A DNA stretch of 64,000 nucleotides from assembly GCA_964527715.1 (NCBI GenBank), contig CAZGOD010000006.1, forward strand, positions 8,060 through 72,059. The letters run 5' to 3'. Within the stretch, counting starts at the first letter, position 1, and every line of letters starts with the position of its first letter. This DNA comes from an uncultured Thermoplasmatales archaeon (GTDB lineage Archaea; Thermoplasmatota; E2; DHVEG-1). A program made the position numbers and the translations under genes. Positions 30,814-58,304 of this stretch are shown piece by piece. Under the pieces are notes generated by a model. The model was not told the DNA's origin and did not search any database. It was given only the letters and a program-made list of their open reading frames with translations.

Positions 30814-31320
30814 ATGAATCAAACTAGACTTATTAAACATAACGCTAAAAAATATTATACCCTACAAAACTGTTACAAGTCTGTGCTCACAATAAGAAAA
30901 TTCCAACCAGATGACATGTTCTCAATCATAAAAATAGCACACGAGACATTAACTGAACGATACAACCCCACTTTCTTCAACTATTTCTATGAATCATTCC
31001 CAGAGGGATTCTGGATAGCTGAAAAACACCATAAACCAATAGCTTTCATAGCAGGTACAATAACAGATAATGAAAACGCAAAAATACTAATGCTATCTGT
31101 AACAAAACAATACAGACAACAAAACATAGGTGCAAACCTACTAAAACAATTCCTAAAAGAAACAACTCTTAAAAAAATAAAACAAATAGAACTAGAAGTT
31201 AAAACAGACAATCAAAAAGCCATAGAATTCTACAAAAAACACGGATTTGATATTATAAAAATTATACCAAAATTTTACCAAAACGGAGAAGACGCATATT
31301 TGATGAGAAAAAAAATTTAG
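30814..31320 (+). CDS. GNAT-family N-acetyltransferase
   Basis: Acetyl-CoA-binding region QQNIGANLL...HGF. Start moved to the internal Met to avoid overlap with thi4. Confidence 0.6.
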   Translation: MNQTRLIKHNAKKYYTLQNCYKSVLTIRKFQPDDMFSIIKIAHETLTERYNPTFFNYFYESFPEGFWIAEKHHKPIAFIAGTITDNENAKILMLSVTKQYRQQNIGANLLKQFLKETTLKKIKQIELEVKTDNQKAIEFYKKHGFDIIKIIPKFYQNGEDAYLMRKKI

Positions 31321-31619
31321 ACACGAACGAGCTCTTTTTCTTTCTCAGTCATAAAACGCTCAGACATCTGATTAAGCCTACCAGATATCTTTTCCAGGCC
31401 TGGGAAACTATTATTAGATAGAAGATCAGCTATTCCACGGCTAAGAGTGAAAACTGCTAGTTTATGCTCCCTTTTAGATTTGTAAACCTGATAAGGTGTA
31501 ACGTTAAGTTTAACATATGGTTTAAACTCTAAACCACCATTGTTTTCAACTATGTCTTCTAAATGTGTTTTCAACTGAAGCAAGAACGTATGGAGTTGTA
31601 TTAGCTCATCTTTCTGCAT
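31317..31619 (-). CDS. UPF0058-family small protein
   Basis: N-terminus MQKDELIQLHTFLLQL resembles archaeal UPF0058 proteins. Confidence 0.45.
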   Translation of the reverse strand: MQKDELIQLHTFLLQLKTHLEDIVENNGGLEFKPYVKLNVTPYQVYKSKREHKLAVFTLSRGIADLLSNNSFPGLEKISGRLNQMSERFMTEKEKELVRV

Positions 31620-31753
31620 TATAATATTCCCACCATTAAAACAATGGATTGAAATAATAAATGGGCTTTTTATGATTTTCTGCGAACCATTTAAATATGA
31701 GAACTATCTAGCAAATTATAAAAAATAAAAAATTAAAAAAATGATGAGAAGGA

Positions 31754-33022
31754 TCACTCGAGATCCTTTTTAGTTAACACTTTAACTGAGGTAGGTTTTT
31801 TAACAACGTTACCCATTTTTATGCCAACAATCTCCTTAACATTTTTGTTATTAGCAATATCTAAAAGACGCTGTGTTATAATACCATCGAATACCACTGT
31901 GGAAATATTACCACTTTTCTTCAACGCATCTGTTAACTCTCTCACAGGTATTTTCTTTAATTCTTTTTCGTTTTTATCGAAGAGCACTGCTTTTAAAGAA
32001 CCGGAGATGTTCTCTAATATTTTACCGTAATTTTTCTGTTTTTCAGTTATGATACTTTCTTCTTCTTTAGGTTTTTCTTCATTTTTTTGTTTTTCTTCAG
32101 TCCTTGGTTTTTCTGTAGTTTTTGATTTCGTAGATATAGAAGGAGGCTCTGGTTCTCCTAGAGTTTTTGCTTTTACTTTTTTATCTATTTTTATATCGTA
32201 CATTTCAGCGTATTGCTCAGCGGGGATTTTATTTTTCAAAGCCTTCATGATAAGTTTCTGTGGTATTTCCTCAACCTCACGGGTAGCTGGTGCACGTGCT
32301 ACGAAGTCAACATCGGCCGTCTGTAATAGTTCTCTAAGGATTAATTCTCCACCGCGATCTCCATCAACAAAAACAGTGGATATTCTTTCTTTGGTAAGGT
32401 TTGTAACTGTCTTTGGAATGTTTGTACCACCAACAGCTATAACGTTTTTAATACCATATTTTAAAAGATTTAGTACGTCTCGTCTTCCTTCAACAATGAT
32501 TATTGCATCACTTTTTTCAATGTTGGGACCTGCAGGGCAATGATCTTGACCAAAGTTCGTTATTTCTTCAACTTGAACAGCCTGCCTAACATTATCTGCA
32601 ATGCTTTCTCCCCCCATTTTTCCTTCTTCCATCACCTTGTTAAGCAGTTCCTTTGCACGTTCTATAACTTTTTTTCTTCGAACAACTCGTACATCTTCAA
32701 CTTCATCAGCGGTAATAGTAGCTTTACATGGTCCAACGCGATCTATACTTTCAAAAGCAGCTGCGAGTATAACTGTTTCAACTTTGTCTAAAGATGTTGG
32801 TAGAGTGATTATTCCTTCACTTTTACCATTCTTTGACTCAAGTTCTACTTCTATTCTTCCAACTCTTGCAGATCTCTGTAGTTCACGTAGGTCTAATTCA
32901 TCGCCGAGAAGACCCTCGGTTTGGCCAAAAATAGCACCTACTACATCAGATTTCTCAATGACACCATCAGCCTTAATATGTGCTTTAATCAAATATTTCG
33001 TAGTTGCGGGATCGATTACCAT
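31754..33022 (-). CDS. dnaG: archaeal DnaG-type primase (TOPRIM)
   Basis: N-terminus TTKYLIKAHI. TOPRIM acidic motifs (IIVEGRRD, VDGDRGG). 422 aa. Confidence 0.85.
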   Translation of the reverse strand: MVIDPATTKYLIKAHIKADGVIEKSDVVGAIFGQTEGLLGDELDLRELQRSARVGRIEVELESKNGKSEGIITLPTSLDKVETVILAAAFESIDRVGPCKATITADEVEDVRVVRRKKVIERAKELLNKVMEEGKMGGESIADNVRQAVQVEEITNFGQDHCPAGPNIEKSDAIIIVEGRRDVLNLLKYGIKNVIAVGGTNIPKTVTNLTKERISTVFVDGDRGGELILRELLQTADVDFVARAPATREVEEIPQKLIMKALKNKIPAEQYAEMYDIKIDKKVKAKTLGEPEPPSISTKSKTTEKPRTEEKQKNEEKPKEEESIITEKQKNYGKILENISGSLKAVLFDKNEKELKKIPVRELTDALKKSGNISTVVFDGIITQRLLDIANNKNVKEIVGIKMGNVVKKPTSVKVLTKKDLE

Positions 33023-33278: not shown

Positions 33279-35423
33279 GTGCCTAAGATGAAAGAAAAAA
33301 TATACATCGGTGTAGCATGGCCCTATGCAAACGGGTCACTTCATCTTGGACATATCGCAGGATGTTATCTACCAGCAGACATCTTCGCACGATACAACAG
33401 GATGAAAGGCAATGACGTTTTGATGGTTTCCGGTAGCGACGAGCATGGCACGCCTATTACAATCACTGCAGAGAAAGAAAACACAACTCCGCAAGTTATA
33501 GTAGATAGATACAACAAAGAGCACACAGAGAACATGAAACAATTTGGTATTTCTTTTGATTTATTTACTAGGACATCAACGGATAACCATGCAAAAGTAG
33601 TACAGGATCTTTTTTCAACTCTTTACACTAAAGGATATATCTACAAAAAAAGTGTTGAGTCTTTTTACTGTAAAGAATGCAACCGTTTTTTACCTGATCG
33701 TTACATTGAAGGAACCTGTCCATATTGTAGTAATGAAAAAGCAAGAGGAGATCAATGCGATGAATGCGGTAAAATACTCGATTCGCAGGAACTACAGAAT
33801 GTGAAATGTAAAATTTGTGGTAGCACTCCTGAAATACGAACAAGTGAACATCTATTTCTTGCGTTAAGTAAATTTGAAACAAAATTGCTTGATTGGATAA
33901 GTGATAAAAGACATTGGAAATCAAGCGTGATGAAATTTACCCAGAACTGGTTGAAGAACGGACTGAAAGATAAAGCAATAACAAGAGACATGGAATGGGG
34001 TATAAAAGTCCCGGTTGAAGGTTTTGAAGATAAACGAATCTATGTATGGTTTGATGCAGTAACAGGATACCTATCTGCTAGTAAAGAATGGTCACAAAAT
34101 TTAGGAAATCCTGATAAATGGGAAGAATGGTGGAAAAACAAGCAGGCAAAGCACTACTATTTTCTTGCAAAGGACAACATTCCATTTCACAGTTTAATCT
34201 GGCCCTCTATGCTCATGGGTTATGATAAATCCCTAGAGTTGCCATATGACATACCTGCAAATGAATATCTGCGGCTCAAAGGCGAGCAGTTTTCTAAAAG
34301 CAGGGGCGTGGCTGTTTGGGTTCCAGATATTCTTGAAAAATTTGATGCTGATGCTGTGCGATATTACCTATCTATTAATATGCCTGAGAACAAGGATACT
34401 AATTGGACCTGGGATGATTTTGTTGCCAAGAATAATGATGAACTTGTAGGAACATATGGTAATTTTATCCACAGAGTCATTACATTCACTCAGAAAAATT
34501 TTGGTGAAATTCCAAAACAAGGAAAGTTAGATGATTTAGACAAAAAAGCGATCAAGAAAATAAAAGAAAGTTCCAAAGAAGTTGACACGTCCTTAGGTAA
34601 ATGCAATTTCAAAAAAGGATTACGAGCATCAATGAATCTTGCACAATTTGGTAATTATTATTTTGATCAAAAACAACCGTGGGCTCTTATAAAATCTGAT
34701 AAAGAAGCATGTGGAACTGTATTACATATCTGCTTGAAAATTGTAAATGCTCTCGCAGTTTTAACAGCACCCTATTTACCATTTTCTTCAGATGCAATTT
34801 GGAAAGGTCTAGGTAATAACACCTCTATACATATTACAAGCTGGGATGGCACCCAGAAAGAACTAAATGTAGGATTTAAACTGGAAAAACCAAAACCATT
34901 ATTCAAAAAACTTGCATTAACAGATTTCATAACAGAGGAAGACCCATTTTCAAAACTTGATCTACGTGTCGCAAAAATAATAGATGTAAAAGATCATCCT
35001 AATGCTGACACGCTCTATATGATGCATCTAGACCTTGGGGCTCTTGGTAAAAGGGTTATAGTAGCAGGTATGAAACCCTACTATTCAAAAGACGAACTTA
35101 AGGGTAAAAACATTGTAATTGTTGCTAATCTTAAACCTGCAAATATTCGTGGTGTAAAATCTAATGGTATGCTGCTCGCTGCAGAAGATGGAAAAGAAAT
35201 TTGTTCTCTTCTAAAACCTGGTGACGCCGGCCCAGGTTCAGAAGTATTCATAGAAGGCATTCCACGTGAACCTAAAAAAATCCTTGAATTTGAGGATTTC
35301 AAAAAAGTAAATATGGCGATAAACGAGAAACAGGAAGCAGCATATGATGACAAAATATTAATGGGTAAAAAAGGAAAAATTGTTTCTGACAAAAAAATTA
35401 AAAAAGGAGCTAAGATTCTGTAA
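33279..35423 (+). CDS. metG: methionyl-tRNA synthetase with C-terminal EMAPII/Trbp111-like tRNA-binding domain
   Basis: HLGH, zinc knuckles (CKEC...CPYC...CDEC...CKIC), KFSKSRG (KMSKS). Confidence 0.95.
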   Translation: MPKMKEKIYIGVAWPYANGSLHLGHIAGCYLPADIFARYNRMKGNDVLMVSGSDEHGTPITITAEKENTTPQVIVDRYNKEHTENMKQFGISFDLFTRTSTDNHAKVVQDLFSTLYTKGYIYKKSVESFYCKECNRFLPDRYIEGTCPYCSNEKARGDQCDECGKILDSQELQNVKCKICGSTPEIRTSEHLFLALSKFETKLLDWISDKRHWKSSVMKFTQNWLKNGLKDKAITRDMEWGIKVPVEGFEDKRIYVWFDAVTGYLSASKEWSQNLGNPDKWEEWWKNKQAKHYYFLAKDNIPFHSLIWPSMLMGYDKSLELPYDIPANEYLRLKGEQFSKSRGVAVWVPDILEKFDADAVRYYLSINMPENKDTNWTWDDFVAKNNDELVGTYGNFIHRVITFTQKNFGEIPKQGKLDDLDKKAIKKIKESSKEVDTSLGKCNFKKGLRASMNLAQFGNYYFDQKQPWALIKSDKEACGTVLHICLKIVNALAVLTAPYLPFSSDAIWKGLGNNTSIHITSWDGTQKELNVGFKLEKPKPLFKKLALTDFITEEDPFSKLDLRVAKIIDVKDHPNADTLYMMHLDLGALGKRVIVAGMKPYYSKDELKGKNIVIVANLKPANIRGVKSNGMLLAAEDGKEICSLLKPGDAGPGSEVFIEGIPREPKKILEFEDFKKVNMAINEKQEAAYDDKILMGKKGKIVSDKKIKKGAKIL

Positions 35424-35452
35424 AAAAACTTTATTCAGGGAGGTAAAACTAG

Positions 35453-36343
35453 ATGGCAATTGTGAGAGAGACAAATCTACCATTGAAATCTTTTAAAAAA
35501 GGAAAAGTTAGGGATGTTTACGAGGTTGATGACAGCCTCTTGCTCATTGTAACTGATCGCATTTCTGCTTTTGACTATGTCCTTCATGAGCCTATACCGT
35601 ATAAGGGTGTCTGTCTTACTCAGATATCTAAATTCTGGTTTGATTTCTTCAGAGATTCTGTACCAAGTCATATGATTTCATCAGATGTCTCTAAGTTTCC
35701 AGGCGATCTAGGAGAACATGAAGAGGTTCTATCTGGTCGTAGTATGATAGTGAAAAAAGCAAGAGTATTCCCAGTTGAATGTATTGTTCGTGGTTATATT
35801 TCTGGATCAGCTTGGAAATCTTATCAGAAAGATGGAACTGTCTGTGGGATAAAATTACTAGAGGGTATGCGGGAATCTGATAAATTTGATGAGCCGCTTT
35901 TTACTCCATCTACAAAAGCAGAATCTGGTCATGATATAAATATTTCTTTTGAGGAAATGAAGAAATTAATTGGTGAAGAGGATGCAGAGAAGATTAAAGA
36001 ATTATCTCTAAGTATTTACAACAAAGGCGCGGAGTATGCGCGTAAAAAAGGTATTATTATCGCTGATACTAAATTCGAGTTTGGTAAACTAGATGATGAG
36101 ATAATTCTTGTTGATGAAATTCTTACACCTGATTCTTCACGTTTTTGGCCTGCGGATCTTTATGAGCCGGGAAGATCTCAACCTAGTTTTGATAAACAGT
36201 ATGTACGTGATTATTTGAGTGGTACTGGTTGGGATAAAAATAGTGATCCACCTCATTTGCCGGAGAATGTTATCGAGGAGACTAAGAACAAGTATATCGA
36301 GGCTTTTGAGAGGATTACAGGTGAAAAGTTCACATTTGTATAA
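35453..36343 (+). CDS. purC: phosphoribosylaminoimidazole-succinocarboxamide synthase
   Basis: GKVRDVYEV...LIVTDRISAFD signature of SAICAR synthetase. Confidence 0.9.
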   Translation: MAIVRETNLPLKSFKKGKVRDVYEVDDSLLLIVTDRISAFDYVLHEPIPYKGVCLTQISKFWFDFFRDSVPSHMISSDVSKFPGDLGEHEEVLSGRSMIVKKARVFPVECIVRGYISGSAWKSYQKDGTVCGIKLLEGMRESDKFDEPLFTPSTKAESGHDINISFEEMKKLIGEEDAEKIKELSLSIYNKGAEYARKKGIIIADTKFEFGKLDDEIILVDEILTPDSSRFWPADLYEPGRSQPSFDKQYVRDYLSGTGWDKNSDPPHLPENVIEETKNKYIEAFERITGEKFTFV

Positions 36344-36378
36344 CAAGGCATAAATAATATATGTCCTGATATAAATAT

Positions 36379-37365
36379 TTGATGAAAAGTACATATCTGC
36401 AGTTATTTACATTATTACTAGGTTCTATTGTTATCGTTAGTGGGATTACTGTTGCAGATTCAAAACAAAAAAATCTGTCAACCAAAGTAACTATTTGTTC
36501 TGATGATTTTTATTTTGTTCATATTACTGACACACATGTTATGCATAAAATATTTGATAGAAATGAGGTTTTCAAAAATAGATTGGAATCTGTATTAGAC
36601 AAGGTTAGATCTTTTGATAGGGAACCCGCTTTCGTTGTTGTAACTGGTGATCTTGTAGAATGGGGTGGTTTTGGATTAACTGGTGCTCTTAACTGTATAA
36701 CATTTAGTGATTGTTTTTATGAAAAAGATGAGCAGCTGTATCTAGATTCAGATTACACTATACCTGTTTATACCACACCAGGTAACCATGATTATCGCTG
36801 GGGGACAAAACTCAATAATTATCATCGGTTCATTAATCCAAATCATGTTGAAGATGAAGATCGATATATCATCGAGTATGAGAACCTGAGCTTATTTTTC
36901 TTGGATTCAGGGCATGATTATCTCCTAAATCCGCTTGGATGGGTTCGCTCGGATGGTCTACATGTTAAAGGAAGTGGGCTCTATGATGATGATATTATAT
37001 GGCTCAATGACTCTTTAAATAGTTGTGAATCCAATCATAAAATTGTTTTAATGCATCATCCTGCCATCAGTGAACGCGATAGTTTTGGTAAAATGTTAGA
37101 TGTTTTAGCCCGTAATAGGGAAGAATTCATTGAATTATGTAAATATCATGATGTAGATATGGTTCTTACTGGTCACACACATAGAGAAATGGTTTTTGAT
37201 AGTGAAGAAAACATGTATGATGGTCTTCTAAATTGTAGCTTGTGTTCAACACTGTATGTTAATACTAATGATTGTAAGTATGACTGTGCATATAGAAATA
37301 TCACAATTTTAGGTGATGACATCTGGTTGGAACCAGGTGAAACATTATTTTGTGGTTTTAGCTAA
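36379..37365 (+). CDS. secreted calcineurin-like metallophosphoesterase
   Basis: N-terminal signal/TM. Motifs DTHV, GDLVE, GNHD, GHTHRE. Confidence 0.7.
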   Translation: MMKSTYLQLFTLLLGSIVIVSGITVADSKQKNLSTKVTICSDDFYFVHITDTHVMHKIFDRNEVFKNRLESVLDKVRSFDREPAFVVVTGDLVEWGGFGLTGALNCITFSDCFYEKDEQLYLDSDYTIPVYTTPGNHDYRWGTKLNNYHRFINPNHVEDEDRYIIEYENLSLFFLDSGHDYLLNPLGWVRSDGLHVKGSGLYDDDIIWLNDSLNSCESNHKIVLMHHPAISERDSFGKMLDVLARNREEFIELCKYHDVDMVLTGHTHREMVFDSEENMYDGLLNCSLCSTLYVNTNDCKYDCAYRNITILGDDIWLEPGETLFCGFS

Positions 37366-37582
37366 GAAAAATGACATATATCATTTAATATATCTTTTTA
37401 GAAATCTTTTTTAAGGCTTTGCACACAAACTATAGGGTTTATGTGCATAATACAATTTTGCACATAAAGTTGTTTATTTAAGACATACAAAAACAATTAC
37501 AAAAATATATATAAATATAGCACTTTGATTTCACGTAATAGTTATTAATATTAACTCAAATATAGTTAGTGAGGTTTAGAAC

Positions 37583-37939
37583 ATGCCATCATATTCTGCT
37601 CATATAAGATTAGGAGATCATCCTGGAGATTTACATTTGCATTTTTACTATAATAAAAAAAACAGTAGAAAGTTAATAGGTAAATATCGAATACCATCAT
37701 TAACACCTTTGCCAGGAACGGAACATGATTTAAATAATAATGAAATAGAGTTTCTAAATGAATGGTTAATTCAAAAAAAACAAATTAATAAATTACAGCA
37801 TGCACTGGAAGAAACACTTTTTAATATGGATGAAGTCGGGAAAAAAGTAATAGAAAACATCAAAGAAGGTACTGTTGAAAAACGTAAAGGAACTACTTTT
37901 GTCACAGTACGTTTTCCAGTCATTAAACGACTAAAGTAA
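37583..37939 (+). CDS. hypothetical protein (first gene inside the island)
   Basis: 118-aa ORF, no recognisable domain. Confidence 0.3.
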   Translation: MPSYSAHIRLGDHPGDLHLHFYYNKKNSRKLIGKYRIPSLTPLPGTEHDLNNNEIEFLNEWLIQKKQINKLQHALEETLFNMDEVGKKVIENIKEGTVEKRKGTTFVTVRFPVIKRLK

Positions 37940-37944
37940 ATCAA

Positions 37945-38475
37945 TCATTTAAATCCTAATACAACCATTGTTTTATCTAAAATAAAACAACAATTTACTA
38001 AAACTTCCTTATTTCCGCTATGATCCATCATATATGTTTTAGAACCATGAAAAAGCCTATTACGGACTTTTTCTATTAAAAGAATAAGTTCAATAAACGC
38101 AGATTTATATTTTTCTTCTCTGATGTACTTCTGGTATCTCTTTATCTTATTTCCATAATATTCTAAACTCATATTATTTATTATTTTATCAATTTGTTTT
38201 TTATTATTTTTTAAAAATAATTCTGCCTTTTTTTCTCCAAATTCCTCTCTTTTTAAATGACTTAAAACAGATTTCACTTTTGCAGGTTCTCCAGCATTAA
38301 CATCTTTTTTTCCAGTTTTAGGATTTATATACCTTTTTCCATAGTATACATTAAAAGCAATCCAATAAAAAATCATTTTATTAAAATATTTTTTTTCATC
38401 TCTTGCAGCTTTTAACCAACTGTTAACTCTATTTTTATCTTCGTTTAATAGATTATCAAGTGGCATTTTTCTCAC
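37945..38475 (-). CDS. HEPN-like protein (Rx4H motif), putative RNase/abortive-infection partner of the RM enzyme
   Basis: C-terminal RNRLFHG fits the HEPN Rx4-6H motif. Start overlaps the stop of the upstream RM gene (ATGA at 38472-38475). Confidence 0.4.
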   Translation of the reverse strand: MRKMPLDNLLNEDKNRVNSWLKAARDEKKYFNKMIFYWIAFNVYYGKRYINPKTGKKDVNAGEPAKVKSVLSHLKREEFGEKKAELFLKNNKKQIDKIINNMSLEYYGNKIKRYQKYIREEKYKSAFIELILLIEKVRNRLFHGSKTYMMDHSGNKEVLVNCCFILDKTMVVLGFK

Positions 38476-41400
38476 ACATTATCTATTATGTCCTCAAAAA
38501 TTCTTATTTCTTCGTTTGTTAAGTCATATAATTTGTATGTGGCCATATTGATCTCTTTATCAATATCCAATATTCGGTCTTTTAGAAAAATTAACTCTTT
38601 TTTATATTCATCAAAATAATCTTCCCATTCATCTTGTTCTTTCAATGTTAATGTTATTTTTTGTTTAGATAACTCTTTTAAAAATTCGTCAAAGTTTAAC
38701 TCATAAAAATTCTCTAATCTTTTTGTTATTTTTTCTAAATTTAAATTAGAGAAGACTCTTGCAATAAATCTATTTATCTTTTCATGAAATTCTTTATTTA
38801 ACTTAGTGATTTCAGTTACTTTATTTGCTAATGTATCACTATTACTAATATTTGGTAATGGAATAGGATTTAGGTATATCTCTTTAAATCTTAAATTTGA
38901 ATGAGTTCTTGTCGACTCATAGAGAAGACTGTAAATTTTGTCGAATATTTTTGAATTAAAAAATGCAGCAAATGACTTAACATTAATATTATCCGACTTT
39001 GATTCTACAATTGTGACAGAATTTAATAAGCCAATTTTTTTATAATTAAGTATAATATTCGCTCTATTTTTTGTTGACAATTCTCTTACTAATACAATTT
39101 TATCAGTATCAAAAACTTTTATTTCTAAGGGGTCAATCCAATATTCTGGAGGTTTATCATAATAACACCATATAGACTTACCTGTAAAAACAGGGATGCG
39201 GCCTGAGATCTTTTCATCTTTTAATTTGTTCCTAATTCCTGTTATACCTGCCCCAGCTGTAAATTTAAAAAAGTTATCAATTTTTGTATCTATTTTTTTT
39301 AATTTATCTAAAGCAATCTCTTCTTTCTTATCCTTTGGAAAAAAGAAAATATTGGCAGGTAACAAATTATAATCATTGATTTCGATTTTTTTATCTACTA
39401 ATAATCTTGAAATCTTTTTTATTTTTAAATAATTCCCATATTTTATTGTATTATTATTTGATTTTTTATCTATAATTATTATCGATGTTTCAACTGGAGT
39501 ATCCTCAAAAACACCCGAACCAAAATTAATAATATTATTGATTAATTTTGTATCAATTAAATATTTTCTAATAAGTTTTCCATAGCTTGCTGAAAAGAAT
39601 TTATTTGATGAGATAAAACCTAAAATACCTTTATCATGTAGTAATGATAATCCTTTTTCAATAAATAGTGTTGATAAATCAAATCCAGATTTTACTAAAT
39701 CAAATTGATTATTTATGAAAGCTGTTTCTTCTTCTGAAAATTCTCTACTACGGACATAAGGAGGGTTTCCAATAATTATATCAAATTTAAATGGAAATTC
39801 TGATTCCCAGCTAAAAGACTTGTCTCCTCCAACTTCTTTCTCATGTATTAATGAATTACCACATTTTATATTACTTGAAAGATCGATTAACTTTTTGTTC
39901 TTTTTTGCTATTTTAAAAAATAAACTTAATTTTGTTATTTCAACAGATTCTTCATTAATATCGACTCCATATATGTTATTCTCAATGATTTCTCTTGCTT
40001 CGTCTTCTTCTATAAATTTTGTAAAAGTTAATTGTTCTTTTCTTATTTTTTTAGATTTTCTTTTTGCTAAAGGAGATACTTGTTTCTGAGAATATTCTCC
40101 TATTGATTCCTTAAAAATTTGAACTTCTTTATGAATTTCAAGTAATATCTCAACAGCTTTTATTAGGAAAGATCCTGAGCCGCAAGCAGGATCAAGTATT
40201 TTTAAATTATTGAATTTTTCTTCAAGTTCTTCGATATTATTCGAATATTCTTTAATTAATTTATCAACATTATTTACTCCCTTTTTAGATAAGTAAGGTA
40301 TTATTGTATTTCTACAAATATAATCGGTTACAAAATCTGGTGTATAAAAAACTCCTTCTTTTCTTCTTCTTGAGGGTCTTTGTTCCTGTAGTTCTTCTAA
40401 ATCTGAGATAGACTGTTCAAAGATATGGCCAAGAATATTAACACTTACTTCTGTATTAAAATCAAATGAAGCCATATACAATAAATTCAAAACAATTGGG
40501 TTAACATTGCCATTATGAATTTTTAAAATTGCTTTAGATTTTTCATCGAGTTCAATTTCTTTTTTAATTTTTGAATTTTGATAAATTTCATTAAAATAAG
40601 ATTTTTTTCTAAAATCTTTAAAATAAATTGAAGTCGGTATCGTTTCTTTGAAAAGCCCTCCATTAAAACCAAAAATATTATGTCTTTTTGAACCTTCATT
40701 TAGGTTTTGGAAAATACTTTTAATAAGATTACAAACAAGATTTGTATTCTCTGAGAAAATACTATCTACATTCATTAGGTTTAAAACTTTATCTTCAAAG
40801 AGTCTTTGTTTGAGTTTATCTGTATCTTCTGCAAAAAATACAAACATTAATCTATTTAGAAAAATCTGTGCATAGTGAATTGATTCTTCTTTATTTGCAC
40901 CATTATCCTGAAATTCCCTGATAAGCATCAGTCGTGTTTCATGAAACAACTTATAAAATTCCTTAGTGAACTCTCTTTCTTCAATAACTGACTTATCATA
41001 TAGGGTTTCAATAAATTCTTTATCAATTATACTTTCTTTAGAAAAAATTGCTATAAATTCCTTTAATTTTTCTGCATCATCTTTAATACTTAAAAAATCA
41101 AAAAAATGATATTTGCTATATCCTTTTGATTTATCAATAAGTACAAAATCTCGATAATTTGTACATATTCCATATTTGATAGTATCAATTCGACCCATGT
41201 TGTCCCAGGTTTGTTTAAAAGGAGTGCTTTGTTCTGCTCTATATCCTGTTTGTTTGCTAAAAAGATCTTTTGATTCGCCTTTTACTTCTATACATAGAAT
41301 TGTTTTACCAATTGAATCTTTAAAAGTAAACTCTATATTTGCTTTTTCGTAATCAAGATCTTCTCTTATAGAATATCCAAGAATGTCTCTTAATACATAA

Positions 41401-41555
41401 ATTGCAAATTTGAAATAATTAGATCTCTCTTTTTCAAGAGCACCTGATTCTAATAATTGAATCCATTCGTTAGCATTCTTCTTTTGTTTTTGACTTATTT
41501 TAACATTAGAACATAAACGTTTAATTGTCCTTTCATTGAAAAGTTCAGTATCCAT
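38472..41555 (-). CDS. Type IIG restriction endonuclease/N6-adenine methyltransferase fusion (MmeI-like)
   Basis: 1027 aa. N-terminal PD-(D/E)xK nuclease domain with D-x9-E-x-K spacing (FKDSIGKTILCIEVK), as in MmeI. MTase motif I LDPACGSGSFL, motif IV GNPPY. C-terminal target-recognition region. Confidence 0.8.
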   Translation of the reverse strand: MDTELFNERTIKRLCSNVKISQKQKKNANEWIQLLESGALEKERSNYFKFAIYVLRDILGYSIREDLDYEKANIEFTFKDSIGKTILCIEVKGESKDLFSKQTGYRAEQSTPFKQTWDNMGRIDTIKYGICTNYRDFVLIDKSKGYSKYHFFDFLSIKDDAEKLKEFIAIFSKESIIDKEFIETLYDKSVIEEREFTKEFYKLFHETRLMLIREFQDNGANKEESIHYAQIFLNRLMFVFFAEDTDKLKQRLFEDKVLNLMNVDSIFSENTNLVCNLIKSIFQNLNEGSKRHNIFGFNGGLFKETIPTSIYFKDFRKKSYFNEIYQNSKIKKEIELDEKSKAILKIHNGNVNPIVLNLLYMASFDFNTEVSVNILGHIFEQSISDLEELQEQRPSRRRKEGVFYTPDFVTDYICRNTIIPYLSKKGVNNVDKLIKEYSNNIEELEEKFNNLKILDPACGSGSFLIKAVEILLEIHKEVQIFKESIGEYSQKQVSPLAKRKSKKIRKEQLTFTKFIEEDEAREIIENNIYGVDINEESVEITKLSLFFKIAKKNKKLIDLSSNIKCGNSLIHEKEVGGDKSFSWESEFPFKFDIIIGNPPYVRSREFSEEETAFINNQFDLVKSGFDLSTLFIEKGLSLLHDKGILGFISSNKFFSASYGKLIRKYLIDTKLINNIINFGSGVFEDTPVETSIIIIDKKSNNNTIKYGNYLKIKKISRLLVDKKIEINDYNLLPANIFFFPKDKKEEIALDKLKKIDTKIDNFFKFTAGAGITGIRNKLKDEKISGRIPVFTGKSIWCYYDKPPEYWIDPLEIKVFDTDKIVLVRELSTKNRANIILNYKKIGLLNSVTIVESKSDNINVKSFAAFFNSKIFDKIYSLLYESTRTHSNLRFKEIYLNPIPLPNISNSDTLANKVTEITKLNKEFHEKINRFIARVFSNLNLEKITKRLENFYELNFDEFLKELSKQKITLTLKEQDEWEDYFDEYKKELIFLKDRILDIDKEINMATYKLYDLTNEEIRIFEDIIDNV

Positions 41556-41663
41556 TTTTTCTGTATTCTAAAAGCAAAATGCTTCATTTATACATTTCTT
41601 TTTTGGATACAAAACTTTAAATTATTATAAATTATACCAATGGTATAACCAATGGTGTAATAA

Positions 41664-41894
41664 ATGAAAGTTTTAGATAAACGTTGGGGCGAAGTTACAA
41701 TTAAGCAACAAGGAGAAAAAAAGAATAAATTTGATAAAACAAAATCATTTAGTATAGCAAAAACAAATAATGAATATTCTATAGAAGAATTAAAAGACAT
41801 ACTTGAGATTACGGTCAACCTAACAGAAAAATATAATTACATTGGGTTAAAAAACATATTAAATTCCATAAAAAACAAGGAGAAAGAATTATGA
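41664..41894 (+). CDS. small hypothetical protein (first gene of the divergent operon)
   Basis: 76-aa ORF whose stop overlaps the next gene's start. Confidence 0.25.
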   Translation: MKVLDKRWGEVTIKQQGEKKNKFDKTKSFSIAKTNNEYSIEELKDILEITVNLTEKYNYIGLKNILNSIKNKEKEL

Positions 41895-42436
41895 GTTATG
41901 CTGAAGACATCGAAATAATTGAAAAATATCTAATCTTACTACTTGGGGTAGTAGATAGACCAATTCCATCAAAAATCCATTTACAAAAAGAATTATTTTT
42001 ATTGTCTAAAGCCAATCCGAAAATTGCAGATTTTATTGACTATGAAAAACATTACAAAGGCCCCTACTCTGCTGAATTAGATGATGTTTCTAAAGAACCA
42101 TTGTTCTATACAAATGCATTTGAGTTTGATAAATATCAAAGACTTTTTTTAACTTCTGAAGGAAAAAAAATATTCAATAAAATAATTGAAGAAAATTCAG
42201 ATAACACGAAATTCAAGGAGTTATTAAAATTAATTAAGATGACTCGTGAACTTTACGATAAATTAAGCAAGAATGAATTGTTATTTTTAGTATATGCAAC
42301 TTATAATGATTATACGGAAAAATCTGATATATCTGAGCATCTCCTTTCAAAAATTAGTCGAAAAAAATTTTCAAAGAAATTACTTGAAAAAGGACTAATA
42401 TCTGAGAGAAGAGCAAAAGAACTGGTAGGAGCATAA
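41891..42436 (+). CDS. Panacea (DUF4065) domain protein, putative PanA-type antitoxin
   Basis: IHLQKELFLLSKA and YEKHYKGPYSAEL match the two conserved Panacea blocks (..KLQKLLYY.. and F.AW..GPV.P.LY). Confidence 0.6.
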   Translation: MSYAEDIEIIEKYLILLLGVVDRPIPSKIHLQKELFLLSKANPKIADFIDYEKHYKGPYSAELDDVSKEPLFYTNAFEFDKYQRLFLTSEGKKIFNKIIEENSDNTKFKELLKLIKMTRELYDKLSKNELLFLVYATYNDYTEKSDISEHLLSKISRKKFSKKLLEKGLISERRAKELVGA

Positions 42437-42981
42437 TGTACACATATTCACTGATACCTGATAGTACATTCTTTATTTGTTATCTTGATGACATTGAAAA
42501 ACCTGAATATTTAAAGAAAATAATTAAAAACAATAAATTTAATATTTTTATAGGTCAGATCATCAACAATGAAATTAAAAAATCCAACAATTACAAATCA
42601 TTGGAAAAAGACTTCGGATCTAAAATAAAAATATTTGAATATTACCAATATGGTGAAATTCTTCGACCATTATTTTCGAGAGAAGAGATTATAAAAGGAG
42701 AACATGAGGTTATTGTAATTGCATTTATTTTATTTTCAGAAGATGAAAAATTTATTGCCATTTTAGATGATATAGCTCCAAGGAAATTTATTAAAAACAA
42801 TTTTCCTCAAATATATGAATCTATAGAATGGACTGTGGGATTTACAAAAAATTGTTATTATAAACATAAAATTTTTTCAAAAGAGGAAACATTAATTATT
42901 TTAGAATTGATACAAAATTCTAAGTTCAGAATAGATCCTGAAGTAATCTGTGGATTAATATATGAGGTAAGGTGTAGTTGA
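42436..42981 (+). CDS. uncharacterised 181-aa protein overlapping the Panacea gene (candidate toxin, possibly PIN-like)
   Basis: Start ATG overlaps the Panacea gene stop (TAATG). Acidic residues (D9, E, DD) spaced loosely like a PIN fold. No confident family assignment. Confidence 0.3.
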   Translation: MYTYSLIPDSTFFICYLDDIEKPEYLKKIIKNNKFNIFIGQIINNEIKKSNNYKSLEKDFGSKIKIFEYYQYGEILRPLFSREEIIKGEHEVIVIAFILFSEDEKFIAILDDIAPRKFIKNNFPQIYESIEWTVGFTKNCYYKHKIFSKEETLIILELIQNSKFRIDPEVICGLIYEVRCS

Positions 42982-42982
42982 T

Positions 42983-44197
42983 TTGGGAAAAAATATACCT
43001 GTAAAAGAGTCGATAAGAGATAAAGACTCAGAGTATAATATTAAGAGATTTAAATTTGGCCATATAGATGTTGAAAGACCAATAAAAGTATTAGATGCGG
43101 GTAGCGGAAAAATAAACAAAAAAATATTTGAAGGACAGAAAAAAAACTTTGAAAATGTTATTTTCGAATCTTCAAAATTTTTAAAACCAGATTCAATAAA
43201 AAAAGTCTTAGAAGAATCTGATGATTCAACAATAAAAAAACGAATGGGATTAAGAGAGTGGATAACCGAATATCCATATACTATAACTCATACTTTTGAT
43301 TTTAATCCGTATGATTATTTTAAAAATTTAGAAAAAATTGCAGGCTATTTTTATTACTATTATCAATTTTCAGATACCATACTTTTAGTTCCAAACATTA
43401 AACTGGAAAAGGAAGGAAAACAAATTATTTCAATCGAAGAATATCTTAGATATATTGAAGAAGCTTATTCAATATTAAATCGTAAAAATCATAAAAAAAT
43501 ATTTGTCCCTCTATCTTTGAGATTTGGTATGAACGACATAGAAAATCTTGCAAGGAAATATGAAAAAAATGATTTTTTTAATATTTGGATAGATTTTGAA
43601 GGTAGTTCTGTAGGCAGTAGAACAAAGATAGCCAGAATAAGAAGATTTTTTTCTGTTTTTGATGAATTGGAAAAAGTTGATGATATTATTACTTATTCAA
43701 CTAATATGAGACGTGAAATAACTTCCAATACTAAAAGTAATGAAAGTCCCTCATCAGATGTTTTAACATCTGTTATTGGCGCTAATATTATTGGAGTTAA
43801 TAGAGAACCTCAGGGGTTTGGAGAAAAAATAGATAAAAATCTTCCTGAAGAAGAAATACAAAAGATAAAAGAAAAGAGAAAAAAGAAAATGGAAGAGATG
43901 AAAAAACATAAAGCAAGATATTTTGATCCTGAATCATATTATTATTATAAAATCATTAATTCAAAGTTAAAACAAGAAGAGAAAAATAGACTCATGAACA
44001 TGCAACAAAATATCGTAAATAACTCTTTTTTACTTGATAATGAATTTAATTCTCAAGCTGAACATTTTCTTGAAAAAGGTGATTATTCAATAAAGAAATA
44101 TATCTGTGATAAATCGATGATAAAGGAATATAAGAAGGGTTATTTAATCGATGATTTGTTTGGAGAAAAATCTAAAAAGAAACTTAATTGGTTTTAA
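42983..44197 (+). CDS. uncharacterised 404-aa protein (third gene of the Panacea operon)
   Basis: Begins 2 nt after the preceding stop. No P-loop, no Cys cluster, no recognisable catalytic motif. Lys/Glu-rich linker in the middle. Confidence 0.3.
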   Translation: MGKNIPVKESIRDKDSEYNIKRFKFGHIDVERPIKVLDAGSGKINKKIFEGQKKNFENVIFESSKFLKPDSIKKVLEESDDSTIKKRMGLREWITEYPYTITHTFDFNPYDYFKNLEKIAGYFYYYYQFSDTILLVPNIKLEKEGKQIISIEEYLRYIEEAYSILNRKNHKKIFVPLSLRFGMNDIENLARKYEKNDFFNIWIDFEGSSVGSRTKIARIRRFFSVFDELEKVDDIITYSTNMRREITSNTKSNESPSSDVLTSVIGANIIGVNREPQGFGEKIDKNLPEEEIQKIKEKRKKKMEEMKKHKARYFDPESYYYYKIINSKLKQEEKNRLMNMQQNIVNNSFLLDNEFNSQAEHFLEKGDYSIKKYICDKSMIKEYKKGYLIDDLFGEKSKKKLNWF

Positions 44198-44199
44198 TC

Positions 44200-44394
44200 T
44201 TATTTTTTTGTAATTGGTTTAACATTGATTACAAGTTCACCGTTTTCTGCTTTTAAAGTCCAATCAAGCTTGTCTCCTTCTTTAAGATTAAAATGACTCA
44301 TAATCCCTGCAGGAACGGTTGTTCTATAGGAGTTTACTATTGTTGAGGCTTTTGCAATAGTTGTTGTAAAACCCATATTTATCATAATGTGCAT
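44200..44394 (-). CDS. AbrB/MazE/SpoVT-family swapped-hairpin DNA-binding protein
   Basis: TTVPAGIMSHFNLKEGDKLDW matches the AbrB/SpoVT looped-hinge-helix consensus. 64 aa. Confidence 0.55.
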   Translation of the reverse strand: MHIMINMGFTTTIAKASTIVNSYRTTVPAGIMSHFNLKEGDKLDWTLKAENGELVINVKPITKK

Positions 44395-44647
44395 GTTATT
44401 TGTTGTATATATTTCTTACTACTTTTTATACTATCTTCTATCCTACCTAAAAGTTTATATACTAAGATGCATTTACCCTTATAAAGGTAGATTAAAAGGT
44501 AGTAAATAAACAAAAGAAATATAAAACAAATATTTGCTGCACCCCCTCTTGATGGAGGGATAATCCAATTACATCAATAAGTTTATTAAAAGCCACCTGC
44601 AGCAAACTACCTTAGATACCTACTTAGAGTTAAATGGAAAAGGTAGT

Positions 44648-45658
44648 ATGGAAAATATTTCTCCAGAAGACCCAATAATAAAAATTTCATACCCTCAAGA
44701 CTGGGTTTCATACAACAGTGCACAAACCCAAGAGAAAATTCTATTTTTAGAATTATTATATGAAATAACCTCCCAAGTACCACAACCAAAATACAAAGGA
44801 AATGGTCGCCCACCTGCAAATATTGGAGAAATGATTTTTTCATGTTGCTTAAAACATTATCTTGATTTTAGCAGTAGGCGAAGCCAATCAGATATTAAAT
44901 TAGCACAACAACTTGGATATTTAGATCATGCTCCACATTTCAACACCGTTTTAAAATATCTCAGAAAACCTGAATTAAAATTAATATTAACCAAATTGAT
45001 TCAAATATCTGCCTTACCTCTAAAAGAAATCGAGCAAGATTTCGCATCAGATGCATCTGGATTTAGTACTGTTATGACCTTTGCTTGGAATAAATGCAAC
45101 AGAAGCCACTTTGATAGGAAGAAATTCAAAAAAGCTCATGTAATGTGCGGTGTTAAAACCAATGTTATAACCCATATTGAAGTTACTGATGGTTATGTTC
45201 ACGATACTTTGATGTTCGAAAATTTAGTTAAAAAAACTGCAATAAATTTTGATATGAGAGAGGTTAGTGCAGATAAAGGATATTCAACTGAGAAGAATTT
45301 AGATATAGTTACTAAACATGGTGCCATCCCTTTTATTGTTTTTAAAAAGAATGCAAGAATATCAGAAGATAAAATGTTAATTTGGAGAATAATGCTTAGA
45401 TATTTTAAGAACCATAAAGAAGATTTTATGGAGCATTATCATAAACGCTCAAACGTTGAAACTGTTTTTAGTATGATGAAACGAAAATTTGGTTCTCATG
45501 TTAGAGCTAAAAACTCTATCGCTCAAGAAAATGAAGTTTTATGTAAGGCTCTTTGTCATAACATTGTTGTCCTTATTCATGAGATGTTTGAGCTCGGAAT
45601 TACTTTAGATCTATCAAAATTGATGGAACAGGAGTTTATGTGCAAAATTAAAGAGTAA
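44648..45658 (+). CDS. IS5-family DDE transposase
   Basis: GNGRPP motif and a D..D..E triad context (ASDASGF, SADKGYS, NVETVFSMMKRKFG) typical of DDE_Tnp_1/IS5-group transposases. Confidence 0.85.
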   Translation: MENISPEDPIIKISYPQDWVSYNSAQTQEKILFLELLYEITSQVPQPKYKGNGRPPANIGEMIFSCCLKHYLDFSSRRSQSDIKLAQQLGYLDHAPHFNTVLKYLRKPELKLILTKLIQISALPLKEIEQDFASDASGFSTVMTFAWNKCNRSHFDRKKFKKAHVMCGVKTNVITHIEVTDGYVHDTLMFENLVKKTAINFDMREVSADKGYSTEKNLDIVTKHGAIPFIVFKKNARISEDKMLIWRIMLRYFKNHKEDFMEHYHKRSNVETVFSMMKRKFGSHVRAKNSIAQENEVLCKALCHNIVVLIHEMFELGITLDLSKLMEQEFMCKIKE

Positions 45659-45692
45659 ATACTTTATGTGCAAAGCCCTTTTTTAATATATT

Positions 45693-46520
45693 TTATCCTT
45701 CTTGAACAGGGGAACGCCAATCAAGACCCAGAGTCCTCAGACCAATTTTTGGAATCAAAGGAGACCTACGTTTATGTTGGCTTGTTACACGCATCTTTTT
45801 AACACGATCAACATCAGACTTATCTAAACCAACAATCTCAGCTATATCACTTATTTCCATCTTTTGTTCTAAACCCACTAAAATCTTATCAAGAACACTA
45901 TAACTAAGTCGTAGTTCTTTCTCATCAGTTTGATCTTTCCACAAGCCTGCAGTAGGAGGCTTCGAAACAATCTCCTTAGGGATTTTCAAATACTTAGCAA
46001 GTTCCAAAACCTGAGTCTTGTAAAGATCACCAAGGGGCTGAATATCAACACCACCGTCACCATATTTTGTGAAATAACCAATCAACAACTCAGATTTATT
46101 GGAGGTACCACAAACAAGACTACGTGTCATATTCGCATATTCAAAAAGAAGTATCATCCTAGCCCGGGCTTTAATATTCGCAAGTGCGTACTTATCTGGC
46201 TTAACAACACATTGCTTAGTTATCTGTTGCACAATAGGAGCGATATTCTTTCGTTCACAGAATAAACCAAATTTTTTCACAATGAGTCCATGATGTTCAA
46301 AATCCAACTTTGGAGTGGTTTCATCTGGTAGAAAAACACATCTAGTACTCTCCTTACCGAGAGCCTTTTTACATAGAAATGCGGTAACCGCTGAGTCAAC
46401 TCCACCAGAAAGACCTATAACAACACTTTTACAACCTGAATTTTTCACATAAATCTTTATGAAATCCTCTATAACCGTTGTAACCTCTTCAGGGTTTATT
46501 GATAGGTTAATATCCAACAC
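45693..46520 (-). CDS. nadE: NH3-dependent NAD+ synthetase
   Basis: PP-loop SGGVDSAV. 275 aa. Confidence 0.85.
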   Translation of the reverse strand: MLDINLSINPEEVTTVIEDFIKIYVKNSGCKSVVIGLSGGVDSAVTAFLCKKALGKESTRCVFLPDETTPKLDFEHHGLIVKKFGLFCERKNIAPIVQQITKQCVVKPDKYALANIKARARMILLFEYANMTRSLVCGTSNKSELLIGYFTKYGDGGVDIQPLGDLYKTQVLELAKYLKIPKEIVSKPPTAGLWKDQTDEKELRLSYSVLDKILVGLEQKMEISDIAEIVGLDKSDVDRVKKMRVTSQHKRRSPLIPKIGLRTLGLDWRSPVQEG

Positions 46521-46523
46521 ATA

Positions 46524-47069
46524 TCACCCTTTCTTAAGATGCTCATATATGGATTTCCCATGTGAATCCATCGCTACGACAAGTGGTCCGAATTCTTTAA
46601 CTTTGAATACCCAAACTGCTTCAGGCATGCCAAGCTTATCTAGCCAATACACTCCTTCTACTTTTTCTACTTTGTCAGCGGCGAGGGCGCCAGCACCACC
46701 AGTATAAGATGTATACACACATATATATTTTTGTAATGCTTTCTTAGTTCTCCCCCCCATACCACCTTTACCGATGATAATATTTGTACTAAATTTCTCA
46801 AGGAATTTATCCTCAAAAATCTCCATCCTGCTACTAGTCGTTGGACCTGCAGATACAACTTGCCATTTACCATTTTCCTCTTTCATTAAAGGACCACAAT
46901 GATATAATGCCATCTCAGATGGATCAAATGGAATCTCCTCTTTTTCAAGCATCATATGATGAGCTTCATCACGAGCAGTAAACATCTTACCAGTGACATA
47001 CAATATGTCACCAACCTCCAATTTTTTAATTTCATCTTTATCAGCCGGGATGTTTATGTGATACTCCAC
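46524..47069 (-). CDS. fumB: class I fumarate hydratase (Fe-S hydro-lyase), beta subunit
   Basis: Tartrate/fumarate hydro-lyase beta-type swivel domain (GKGGMGGRT). About 180 aa. Confidence 0.75.
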   Translation of the reverse strand: MEYHINIPADKDEIKKLEVGDILYVTGKMFTARDEAHHMMLEKEEIPFDPSEMALYHCGPLMKEENGKWQVVSAGPTTSSRMEIFEDKFLEKFSTNIIIGKGGMGGRTKKALQKYICVYTSYTGGAGALAADKVEKVEGVYWLDKLGMPEAVWVFKVKEFGPLVVAMDSHGKSIYEHLKKG

Positions 47070-47930
47070 TCATTTCACCTCCCAGCTACCATCGCTATGA
47101 ATAACCATTTTCGCCCGGCGATCAGCCCAACACTGAACCGCGATACCCACCGGGAGACTAGCCGGGTGACGATGAGCCTTTTCAACATGAACATCTAAAA
47201 CCGTAGTCTTCCCACCAAGACCCATAGGACCAATACCACTAGCATTAATACGTTTAATCAATTCCTCCTCAACAGCAGCAATATTTTTATCCTTGTGACG
47301 ATCATCAACAGGTCTTAGAAGAGCTCGTTTACCAAGTTTCAAAGAAAGATCAGCACCACCACCAATACCCACACCAACAACAGTAGGTGGGCATGGGTTA
47401 CCAGCAGACTTTATCATCTCTTCAACTACAAAATCCTTAACACCCTCAATGCCAACACCGGGTTTCAACATACCAAGTTTACTCATGTTTTCGCTACCAC
47501 CACCCTTAGGCAACGCAGTAATATGAACATCATTTCCATCAACGAAATCCCAAGTAATATATGGCAGGTGATCACCTGTGTTGTCCTTATGATTCTCACC
47601 AGTGAACGGGTCAACCGTATTGGGACGAAGAGGAACCTCTAGAGTAGCCTTTTTCACAGCATTATTCATTAAATCCTTAAGTCGATTAATGAAGGAGAAA
47701 TCTATACCTACTTCTATAAAAAAAGTTTGAATACCAGTATCTTGACACATAGGTCTACCTGATTTTTTGGCAAGATCGATATTTTTCAAAATAGCATCAA
47801 TCTGAGTTTTTGCAACACCATCTTCGATTTCATAAGCATGTTCTAGTGACTTTACTACATCATCTGGTAACTCAGTTTCTGCTTTTCTGATGAGTTCAAC
47901 TATGCCATCTTCAATGTTTTTGAGATTCAT
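47070..47930 (-). CDS. fumA: class I fumarate hydratase (Fe-S hydro-lyase), alpha subunit
   Basis: Fe-S hydro-lyase alpha domain with Cys ligands (PMCQDTG). Start set at the internal MNLKNIED. Confidence 0.75.
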   Translation of the reverse strand: MNLKNIEDGIVELIRKAETELPDDVVKSLEHAYEIEDGVAKTQIDAILKNIDLAKKSGRPMCQDTGIQTFFIEVGIDFSFINRLKDLMNNAVKKATLEVPLRPNTVDPFTGENHKDNTGDHLPYITWDFVDGNDVHITALPKGGGSENMSKLGMLKPGVGIEGVKDFVVEEMIKSAGNPCPPTVVGVGIGGGADLSLKLGKRALLRPVDDRHKDKNIAAVEEELIKRINASGIGPMGLGGKTTVLDVHVEKAHRHPASLPVGIAVQCWADRRAKMVIHSDGSWEVK

Positions 47931-48051
47931 CTTGTATACCTCTTTCTTGAATTTAAAATTGATTTTTCCTCCCTTAATCTCGCGAGTAAAACAATTAGGC
48001 ATTATTTAACAGTTATCAAGAAAAAAGGAGAAAAAAAGAGATTTATTTGTT

Positions 48052-58068: not shown

Positions 58069-58304
58069 TAAAAAAAAGTTTGTAGGATGGGGTGTTTCGA
58101 TGAAGCCCAGTGAGGAATCTTCAGAATTATATCTATCATCCCATCCGTATTTTGAATAGGAGGTAATATATGTATTTAAATTTTGCCTTAAAATGTATAG
58201 ACAATTGACGAAGATATATGTTGTAGATTTTAGACTATATATTTAATAACAAGATAAGAGAATATTTGAAACTAAGGTTATATTTCCGACTAGAAACAAA
58301 GGTT

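Follow-up and report, generated by a model that had tools for sequence, protein, structure and literature searches.

The window analysed here is a 64,000-nucleotide (64-kb) stretch of DNA from an uncultured Thermoplasmatales archaeon (contig CAZGOD010000006.1, positions 8,060 to 72,059 of the forward strand), and our subject is an AT-rich element of 8,263 bp that extends from position 37415 to 45677 of this window. The element lies in the 55-nt spacer between a metallophosphoesterase gene and nadE and contains nine open reading frames (ORFs), one of them coding for a transposase. Passenger genes fill about 6.6 kb between the left end and a module formed by an abrB-like gene and the transposase gene. 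A previous reading of the same DNA, made from its letters and ORFs alone (hereafter the sequence-only reading), had favoured mobilisation of the entire block in one piece, through an outer inverted repeat, over the insertion of a simple insertion sequence (IS). Both flanking genes that it named were confirmed, and its impression of an AT-richer island was borne out by the computed GC content, 26.5% for the element against 35-39% for the flanks. Within the element, the cargo genes have a GC content of 25-26% and the abrB-like gene and the transposase gene one of 31-32%. Other low-GC stretches occur in the window (0.30-0.32, the window as a whole being at about 0.37) at 9001-10000, 29001-30000, 31001-32000 and 58001-59000, and none of them shows the transposon end motif described below.

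The inverted termini that the sequence-only reading had pointed out are real. The sequence GGCTTTGCACA is located at 37415-37425 and its reverse complement at 45667-45677, with no other exact copies in the window; a site with one mismatch at 7765-7775 was not accompanied by subterminal repeats and was taken as a chance occurrence. The match extends beyond these 11 nt, as the terminal 19 nt of the two ends agree at 17 of 19 positions: the left terminal inverted repeat (IRL, 37415-37433, plus strand) reads GGCTTTGCACACAAACTAT and the right one (IRR, 45659-45677, minus strand) reads GGCTTTGCACATAAAGTAT, that is, ATACTTTATGTGCAAAGCC on the plus strand, where the right end of the element finishes in ...TGTGCAAAGCC. 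Flush with both tips is a 9-bp direct repeat, CTTTTTTAA, at 37406-37414 and 45678-45686, the two copies of a target-site duplication. The flanking direct repeat had thus been correctly recognised and its length had not: the 8-bp TTTTTTAA originally proposed adjoins the left tip, but stops 1 nt short of the right tip. Both ends carry in addition a subterminal copy of AATTTTGCACATAAAsT, at 37454-37470 on the left (AATTTTGCACATAAAGT, direct) and at 45633-45649 on the opposite strand on the right (AATTTTGCACATAAACT on the minus strand). A third, inverted copy is found at the left end only (TTTATGTGCA, 37438-37447), and the end repeats are all built on the shared motif TTTGCACAyAAA. The left subterminal repeats (37438-37470, plus strand) are probably extra binding sites for the transposase.

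By itself, the 11-nt inverted pair is not significant in a window as AT-rich as this one: exact inverted pairs of that length number 685 within 12 kb, and Markov simulations yielded about 410. The abundance of such chance pairs speaks for a reading in which a simple IS of about 1.3 kb was added next to an AT-rich defence island that was already there, both the direct repeat and the far-off left repeat being coincidental, and so does the compactness of the transposase gene and its position at one edge. This reading has to contend, however, with the fact that identical flush 9-mers were found at a single one of the 685 pairs, precisely the one at 37415/45677, and at none in 200 simulated windows, and with the further subterminal repeats common to both ends.

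The transposase, of 336 amino acids (aa), is encoded at 44648-45658 on the plus strand. It matched the Pfam family DDE_Tnp_1 (PF01609) at 5.2e-20 and its best NCBIfam model was NF033579, transpos_IS5_2, with 130.2 bits over the full length of the model (3-288 of 289). By these matches it is a divergent relative of the IS5 family, IS903-like in type, and the earlier assignment of a sole IS5-family transposase to the right end of the segment agrees with them. The catalytic residues D135, D209 and E271 and the Y-2-R-3-E-6-K signature are intact, and D135, D209, E271, Y264, R267 and K278 are invariant in an alignment of 42 sequences. The inner right repeat (45633-45649) falls in the last codons of the transposase gene, where it encodes a conserved F-M-C-K-I, and M331, C332 and I334 are nearly invariant in the transposase alignment. 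These bases appear to be constrained twice, as protein-coding sequence and as a probable binding site.

Upstream of the transposase gene and divergent from it is a 64-aa AbrB/MazE-fold gene (44200-44394, minus strand; Pfam MazE_antitoxin 1.2e-6). The intergenic region between both genes (44395-44647) contains a TATA-box-like element, AAAGTTTATATA, and is conserved with the related locus L007 and partly with L008. A motif search of this region found no left-end motif, in accordance with the earlier statement that the transposase has no inverted repeat on its own 5' side. An AbrB-like gene stands at the same position and in the same orientation in about sixteen related loci. As judged from this distribution, it is a core accessory of one clade of the family and not cargo, and its product is probably a regulator. 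The description of the segment as holding solely defence, toxin-like and unknown cargo needs to be amended in this respect.

An empty site, with the metallophosphoesterase gene directly followed by nadE, had been suggested as a check and was found in L101, a metagenome contig from the Joint Genome Institute (JGI) that belongs to a related organism (about 86% nucleotide identity) rather than to the same species. Positions 6-1996 of L101 align to window 35414-37408 at 87.7% and positions 2000-4354 to window 45686-48041 at 85.4%, and its gene order is purC, metallophosphoesterase (85% identical at the amino acid level), nadE, fumarase beta and fumarase alpha. The L101 spacer reads AGAATTC--TTATGATATATTTT, where the window predicts AGAAATCTTTTTTAATATATTTT. 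This contig is without the entire 8.27 kb, and not just the 1.3 kb that a simple IS next to an older island would have added. A second line of evidence came from the Logan contigs of sample SRR9710702 (L100, L003 and L005). There, the left-flank contig stops exactly at 37414, whereas the right-flank contig begins exactly at 45678 and shares exactly 30 nt with the contig that leads out of the element; from this overlap, a k=31 assembly graph was deduced. Since the breaks at 37414 and 45678 fit such a graph of mixed alleles, they suggest that filled and empty alleles coexist in that population.

A second insertion site was identified in two Logan contigs from other samples (L102 and L103; the second-copy contig is designated SRR28370467_156700). 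They are 97.0% identical, without gaps, to window 40630-37415 and carry the IRL and the genes for the 118-aa, the 176-aa and the type IIG proteins, that is, the left 3.2 kb of the element. Homology ceases at the first base of the IRL (37415), and beyond it the contigs continue into lplA, lipA, Fe-ADH and metK; the left junction of this copy is flanked by CATATTTGT (reverse complement, ACAAATATG). Because the homology ends at the IRL and the neighbourhood is a different one, the sequences indicate that the IRL tip is a functional boundary and that at least the left 3.2 kb of the cargo were aboard during one transposition. Cargo included, the element has been resident at two or more genomic sites. 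An end placed exactly at the IRL tip is not what a simple IS beside a resident island would produce. No relative was seen with the same genes in the same place and without the repeats; what we found was the same cargo with the same IRL boundary at another locus.

The right boundary has a relative of its own in L007 (CAYYEC010000334.1), which is 85% identical in nucleotide sequence to window 44195-45677, comprising the abrB-like gene, the transposase gene and the IRR, and diverges exactly at the IRR tip. Towards the left, its homology runs on through the abrB-like gene with no left end, which again is at odds with a small IS. L007 was the single locus retrieved when the genome collection was scanned with the transposase, and it is cut on the left. 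It is labelled as an 'uncultured Eubacteriales bacterium', while the named family members are archaeal; the label could reflect mis-binning or a cross-domain transfer.

We then considered the transposase relatives at large, which number 6,275 at E<=1e-10. The few that are named, or whose hosts are, belong to Thermoplasmatales, Thermoplasmatota and metagenome-assembled genomes of Hermodarchaeota. The survey covered 80 metagenome loci plus several from exact-protein look-ups, and left ends were detected by searching upstream for the reverse complement of each locus's own right tip. An IRL, an IRR and a perfect 9-bp duplication were present in 27 insertions (26 distinct elements) of 1,840 to 10,644 bp. 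In all 27 the transposase is at the right end with the cargo to its left, and the left end is placed 0.85 to 9.6 kb upstream of the transposase, always in the three-repeat layout (for example in L012, L009, L034, L076 and L021). The right-end architecture is conserved in relatives of 54-86% amino acid identity. Tips are of the GGCTTTGCACA type, with AGC instead of GGC in a few relatives, and A/T makes up 93-100% at each of the three positions in the middle of the duplication, the insertions being distributed over many unrelated AT-rich sites. The end motif, with its conserved right ends and the matching left ends of 27 insertions, therefore belongs to this IS family and is not foreign to it.

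In the complete Thermoplasmatales genome L008, a candidate IRL is located 8.5 kb upstream of the transposase; as its flanking 9-mers differ at four positions, it was not counted. No IRL was found in L029, L052, L067, L077, L078 and L088 despite 10 kb of upstream sequence; these elements may be longer than 10 kb, decayed or missed by our criteria. A cargo-free form was not found either: 75 loci have at least 300 nt of upstream sequence, and in none of them does a left-end motif come nearer to the transposase than 845 nt. A left repeat directly upstream of the transposase is absent both here and in all those 75 loci, where a simple IS would be expected to have one. Taken together with the flush duplication, the empty site and the second copy, this leaves the notion of a simple IS beside an unrelated island with a negligible probability.

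Two pairs of loci bear on how these elements move. L034 and L035 contain a 100% identical element of 1,928 bp at two sites, each with its own duplication, and L076 and L095 share an element of 8.8 kb, with 97.3% identity over its full length between the tips, again at two sites. By comparison of these copies, whole cargo-bearing units demonstrably move in this family. This matters for a second alternative, according to which a small IS settled here and took up the cargo afterwards, in situ, between its left end and its transposase, the 8.26-kb unit never having moved as a whole. Such a history would agree with the GC difference between the cargo (25-26%) and the abrB-transposase module (31-32%), with the finding elsewhere of transposase-IRR modules that are 90-94% identical and adjoin unrelated cargo, and with the nested left ends of L021. 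From the GC contrast, the unrelated cargo beside similar modules and the L021 left ends, it follows at the level of sequence comparison that the cargo is a secondary acquisition at some stage. That it never travelled afterwards is a different matter, since the IRL and 3.2 kb of the same cargo are found with the same boundary at another locus, the L076/L095 and L034/L035 elements move as complete cargo-bearing units and no cargo-free form of the family was found. We regard this in-situ history as improbable, though somewhat less so than the simple IS.

Several side observations concern the turnover of the cargo. The insertions L090:128-9779 and L095:2192-10994 occupy one common site and share its duplication, GGAAAAACC, whose right copy has lost 1 nt in L095. 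Their interiors differ, that of L095 being 97% identical to the L076 element found elsewhere; it seems that cargo was exchanged while the site stayed the same. The element L021:366-11009 (10.6 kb) contains three further left ends inside it (at 1654, 2052 and 4540) that have the same orientation, and in one of them all three repeats have changed from GCACA to GTACA or TACA. This arrangement suggests left-end-plus-cargo modules stacked before one transposase, and hints at a way in which cargo might accumulate. At L009:11065-11078 (also in L010, L011 and L019) a solitary right-end-like sequence, TTTGTTTGCAAAGCC, is located 37 nt past the IRR of a 4.7-kb element and may be what is left of a previous insertion there.

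The foreign composition of the island and the direct repeats at its borders would also be compatible with a site-specific integrative element, or with a composite transposon mobilised by two flanking IS copies. Pfam and NCBIfam searches of the nine ORFs revealed no integrase, no recombinase and no second transposase. There is no tRNA gene within 17 kb of the island (the nearest are at 19.4 and 20.5 kb), and Rfam and tRNA scans detected nothing in it or near it. Moreover, there is no gap between the direct repeats and the inverted termini, as DDE transposition predicts, the family inserts at many unrelated AT-rich sites and the left end consists of just about 60 nt of repeats followed by cargo. 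An integrase-driven or composite origin has hardly any probability in our estimation.

We conclude, with high confidence, that the segment 37415-45677 is a unit transposon of the non-composite type (a transporter IS) and that the archaeal family to which it belongs uses an IS5/IS903-like DDE transposase: a single transposase and its passengers are enclosed within one pair of inverted repeats and one target duplication. The proposal of a block moved in its entirety by an outer inverted repeat has thereby been sustained. Some points weigh on the other side. The transposase scores below the curated cut-off of the IS5_2 model (130.2 against 140 bits). The empty site was seen in a relative, about 86% identical, in which the target is TTCTTATGA instead of CTTTTTTAA. 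A same-species empty site, predicted to read ...AGAAATCTTTTTTAATATATTTTATCC..., was not present among the contigs identical to the window, as five of five hold the insertion, and the exact 27-mer of this predicted site had no match in the JGI metagenomes. (When nadE, the transposase, the 118-aa protein, P0122 and P0143 were looked up as exact proteins, all contigs obtained were 100% identical to the window, insertion present; purC and the TTG-start metallophosphoesterase gave no record.) The right half of the second copy lies outside the L102/L103 contigs, so that for that event the evidence of joint travel reaches the restriction-modification (RM) genes but does not extend to the toxin-antitoxin-like operon and the transposase. 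Finally, we infer transposase activity, end binding and cut-and-paste chemistry from sequence.

A mechanism can nevertheless be outlined. The transposase would bind the terminal and subterminal TTTGCACAyAAA repeats and pair both ends, cut at the GGC tips and join them to a 9-bp staggered, AT-centred target. Cutting at the tips and 9-bp staggered joining are the mode of IS903-type elements. At the present locus, the insertion between the metallophosphoesterase gene and nadE duplicated the 9-bp target CTTTTTTAA. The AbrB-like protein would regulate the divergent promoter region, and the cargo would be turned over by recombination, or by accretion of left-end-plus-cargo modules beside the conserved transposase module. 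As for the passengers, namely the type IIG RM enzyme, the helical protein co-transcribed with it and a four-gene operon that includes an antitoxin-like protein and a candidate toxin, they would serve both host defence and an addiction-type stability of the element.

The passenger genes themselves are identified with unequal certainty. The first ORF (37583-37939, plus strand) encodes a 118-aa protein with no assigned function, which gave no Pfam, PADLOC or NCBIfam match and is 98% identical in L102/L103. The largest gene (38472-41555, minus strand) encodes a 1027-aa type IIG enzyme of the MmeI/Eco57I kind, with Pfam matches to Eco57I (3.6e-39), N6_Mtase, MmeI_Mtase, MmeI_hel and TaqI_C, a PADLOC match to REase_MTase_IIG (1.6e-74) and the motifs NPPY and D-x9-EVK in its translation. 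These features make a solid case for a complete type IIG RM system in a single polypeptide, with a predicted N-terminal nuclease, an MmeI-type helical spacer, a gamma-class N6-adenine methyltransferase and a target-recognition domain.

Overlapping the stop of the RM gene by 4 nt is the gene of a 176-aa protein that is predicted to be all-helical (37945-38475, minus strand). It has an RNxxxH motif (VRNRLFHG) and a weak PADLOC match to Cas13d (E 0.004). No HEPN domain was recognised in it by Pfam or NCBIfam, no homologues were found apart from the L102/L103 copy, and a single-sequence AlphaFold (AF2) model reached a predicted local distance difference test (pLDDT) score of 40, too low for a fold search. 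A HEPN-like nature of this protein is possible.

The operon on the plus strand consists of four overlapping genes for proteins of 76, 181, 181 and 404 aa. The 76-aa protein (41664-41894) has a faint ArsR-like match (E 0.027). The first 181-aa protein (41891-42436) is antitoxin-like, with a region resembling the C-terminal part of DarG: it matched PDC-M19A (1.3e-7) and DarG (1.8e-6) in PADLOC. A search of the PDB with this single sequence gave no match, whereas the profile of its family, which has at least 251 representatives, matches DarG chain 7yk3_B at 4e-5. The UPF0175 antitoxin domain was detected by Pfam in 29 of 63 sampled family members and SocA_Panacea (PF13274) in one of the 63, at 9e-4. 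In the window protein, Pfam showed no Panacea (SocA/DUF4065, PF13274) match even at E<=10. Of the cargo labels given by the sequence-only reading, that of the RM enzyme is consequently firm, while 'HEPN' and 'Panacea' were not recovered by Pfam and have weak, indirect support.

The second 181-aa protein (42436-42981) is a candidate toxin partner, with a weak PADLOC match to PDC-S70 (2e-4) and an N-terminal segment, LIPDSTFF, that looks PIN-like. The 404-aa protein (42983-44197) has no family match in Pfam, PADLOC or NCBIfam. Both have distant syntenic homologues in L007 (E 6e-5 and E 0.002, respectively), where they form a very divergent pair (42436-44197 in the window; 23-29% identical) beside the abrB-transposase module. 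They may constitute an uncharacterised two-gene system.

Across the family, a catalogue of 86 cargo ORFs from 25 elements showed three groups. One comprises RM and defence functions (N6_Mtase, Methylase_S, Eco57I, Mrr_cat, NA-iREase1, Fic/SoFic and AAA_14-DUF4143), another secreted or surface proteins (NosD/beta-helix, PKD, subtilase and FG-GAP) and the third winged-helix regulators. The name of defence-cargo transposon is accordingly apt for the RM genes of the present element and too narrow for the family, whose cargo is not defence alone.

In bacteria, transposons with cargo play a central part in gene flow and disseminate resistance and defence islands. From the loci surveyed here, a cargo-carrying family of this kind is widespread among archaea as well. 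Its boundaries are defined exactly from sequence, by the GGCTTTGCACA tip, the three-repeat left end and the 9-bp duplication, and thousands of archaeal "islands" beside an IS5-like transposase could be delimited automatically. Defence systems and cell-surface proteins of sediment archaea thus have a simple one-transposase vehicle on which they travel, and a 336-aa transposase with ends of about 60 nt would be a compact candidate genetic tool for archaea. For the window, the transposon accounts completely for the AT-rich island.

In the literature we found no published description of this archaeal transposon family; ISfinder and TnCentral lie outside that search, so that a prior curation is possible. 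Passenger-gene transposons were stated to be undetected in archaea by Krupovic et al. 2019 (PMC6563490). From bacteria, elements of this kind are well known, and the later archaeal reports that we found deal with different elements, namely tRNA-specific aloposons and a two-IS composite. We put at even chances the broader proposition that this would be the first recognised non-composite, cargo-carrying DDE transposon family native to archaea, one that is abundant and IS903-derived, has an obligatory passenger compartment, shuttles RM, toxin-antitoxin and Fic defence genes along with large secreted or surface proteins, and exchanges its cargo beside the abrB-transposase module, possibly by stacking as in L021.

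The nearest known counterparts are the IS903-type elements of the IS5 family. The nearest named plasmid relatives of the transposase are ISAha1, ISRhba5 and ISGNB1-1, at about 24% identity; IS903 itself is a further example of the type. The ISAha1 copy that we examined is 1,039 bp long, with ends GGCTTTGTTGCACAAAC and a 9-bp duplication, GATAGAAGG. Both groups have a 9-bp duplication, GGCTTTG tips (GGCTTTGTTGCACAAAC in ISAha1, GGCTTTGCACACAAAC in this element) and a transposase of the DDE_Tnp_1 type that is about 310-340 aa long and bears the Y-2-R-3-E-6-K signature. Given the shared tip, the duplication length, the DDE/YREK residues and the IS5_2 model, the archaeal family probably works like IS903-type elements and descends from them. 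The two differ, however, in that the archaeal transposases are at about 24% amino acid identity and just under the NCBIfam cut-off, their elements measure 1.8-10.6 kb with one to about twelve passengers whereas the IS903 type is about 1.04 kb with one gene, each archaeal end has two to three copies of the motif, the transposase gene abuts the right end with its last codons overlapping a repeat, the hosts are archaea and one clade has the divergent AbrB-like gene. With 8,263 bp and eight ORFs besides the transposase, the element does not conform to a simple IS (about 1-1.1 kb, transposase alone).

In its organisation, it corresponds to the transporter IS (tIS) or unit transposons of bacteria, a concept that follows ISfinder usage and is illustrated in PMC9330008. 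They too combine one transposase, terminal inverted repeats and a target duplication with passengers inside. Those elements were described for bacteria, whereas in the archaeal family cargo is the rule, large and highly variable. A cargo rich in RM and defence genes, placed between one end and the transposition genes, is likewise found in the Tn7-like elements described by Benler et al. 2021 (PMC8649781). These, however, use TnsA/B/C/D, attachment sites and a 5-bp duplication, while the present element has a single IS5-like DDE transposase, many AT-rich sites and a 9-bp duplication.

Among archaeal systems, the aloposons of Heimdallarchaeia (Wu et al. 2022, PMC8813620) are also cargo elements described as transposons. 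They differ from this element in integrating at tRNA genes and in having tandem giant genes (3,000-6,000 aa) and a ParA-like ATPase, and the main text of that paper makes no mention of 'inverted repeat' or 'target site'. These features are absent here, where the largest protein has 1,027 aa. The archaeal composite 'MIC transposon' (PMC12667266) resembles the element in its multi-gene cargo, DDE transposition, archaeal host and a duplication around the whole unit. Yet the MIC unit is bounded by two flanking ISM1-like copies and an 8-bp duplication, whereas the element of the window has a single transposase and a dedicated left end of its own.

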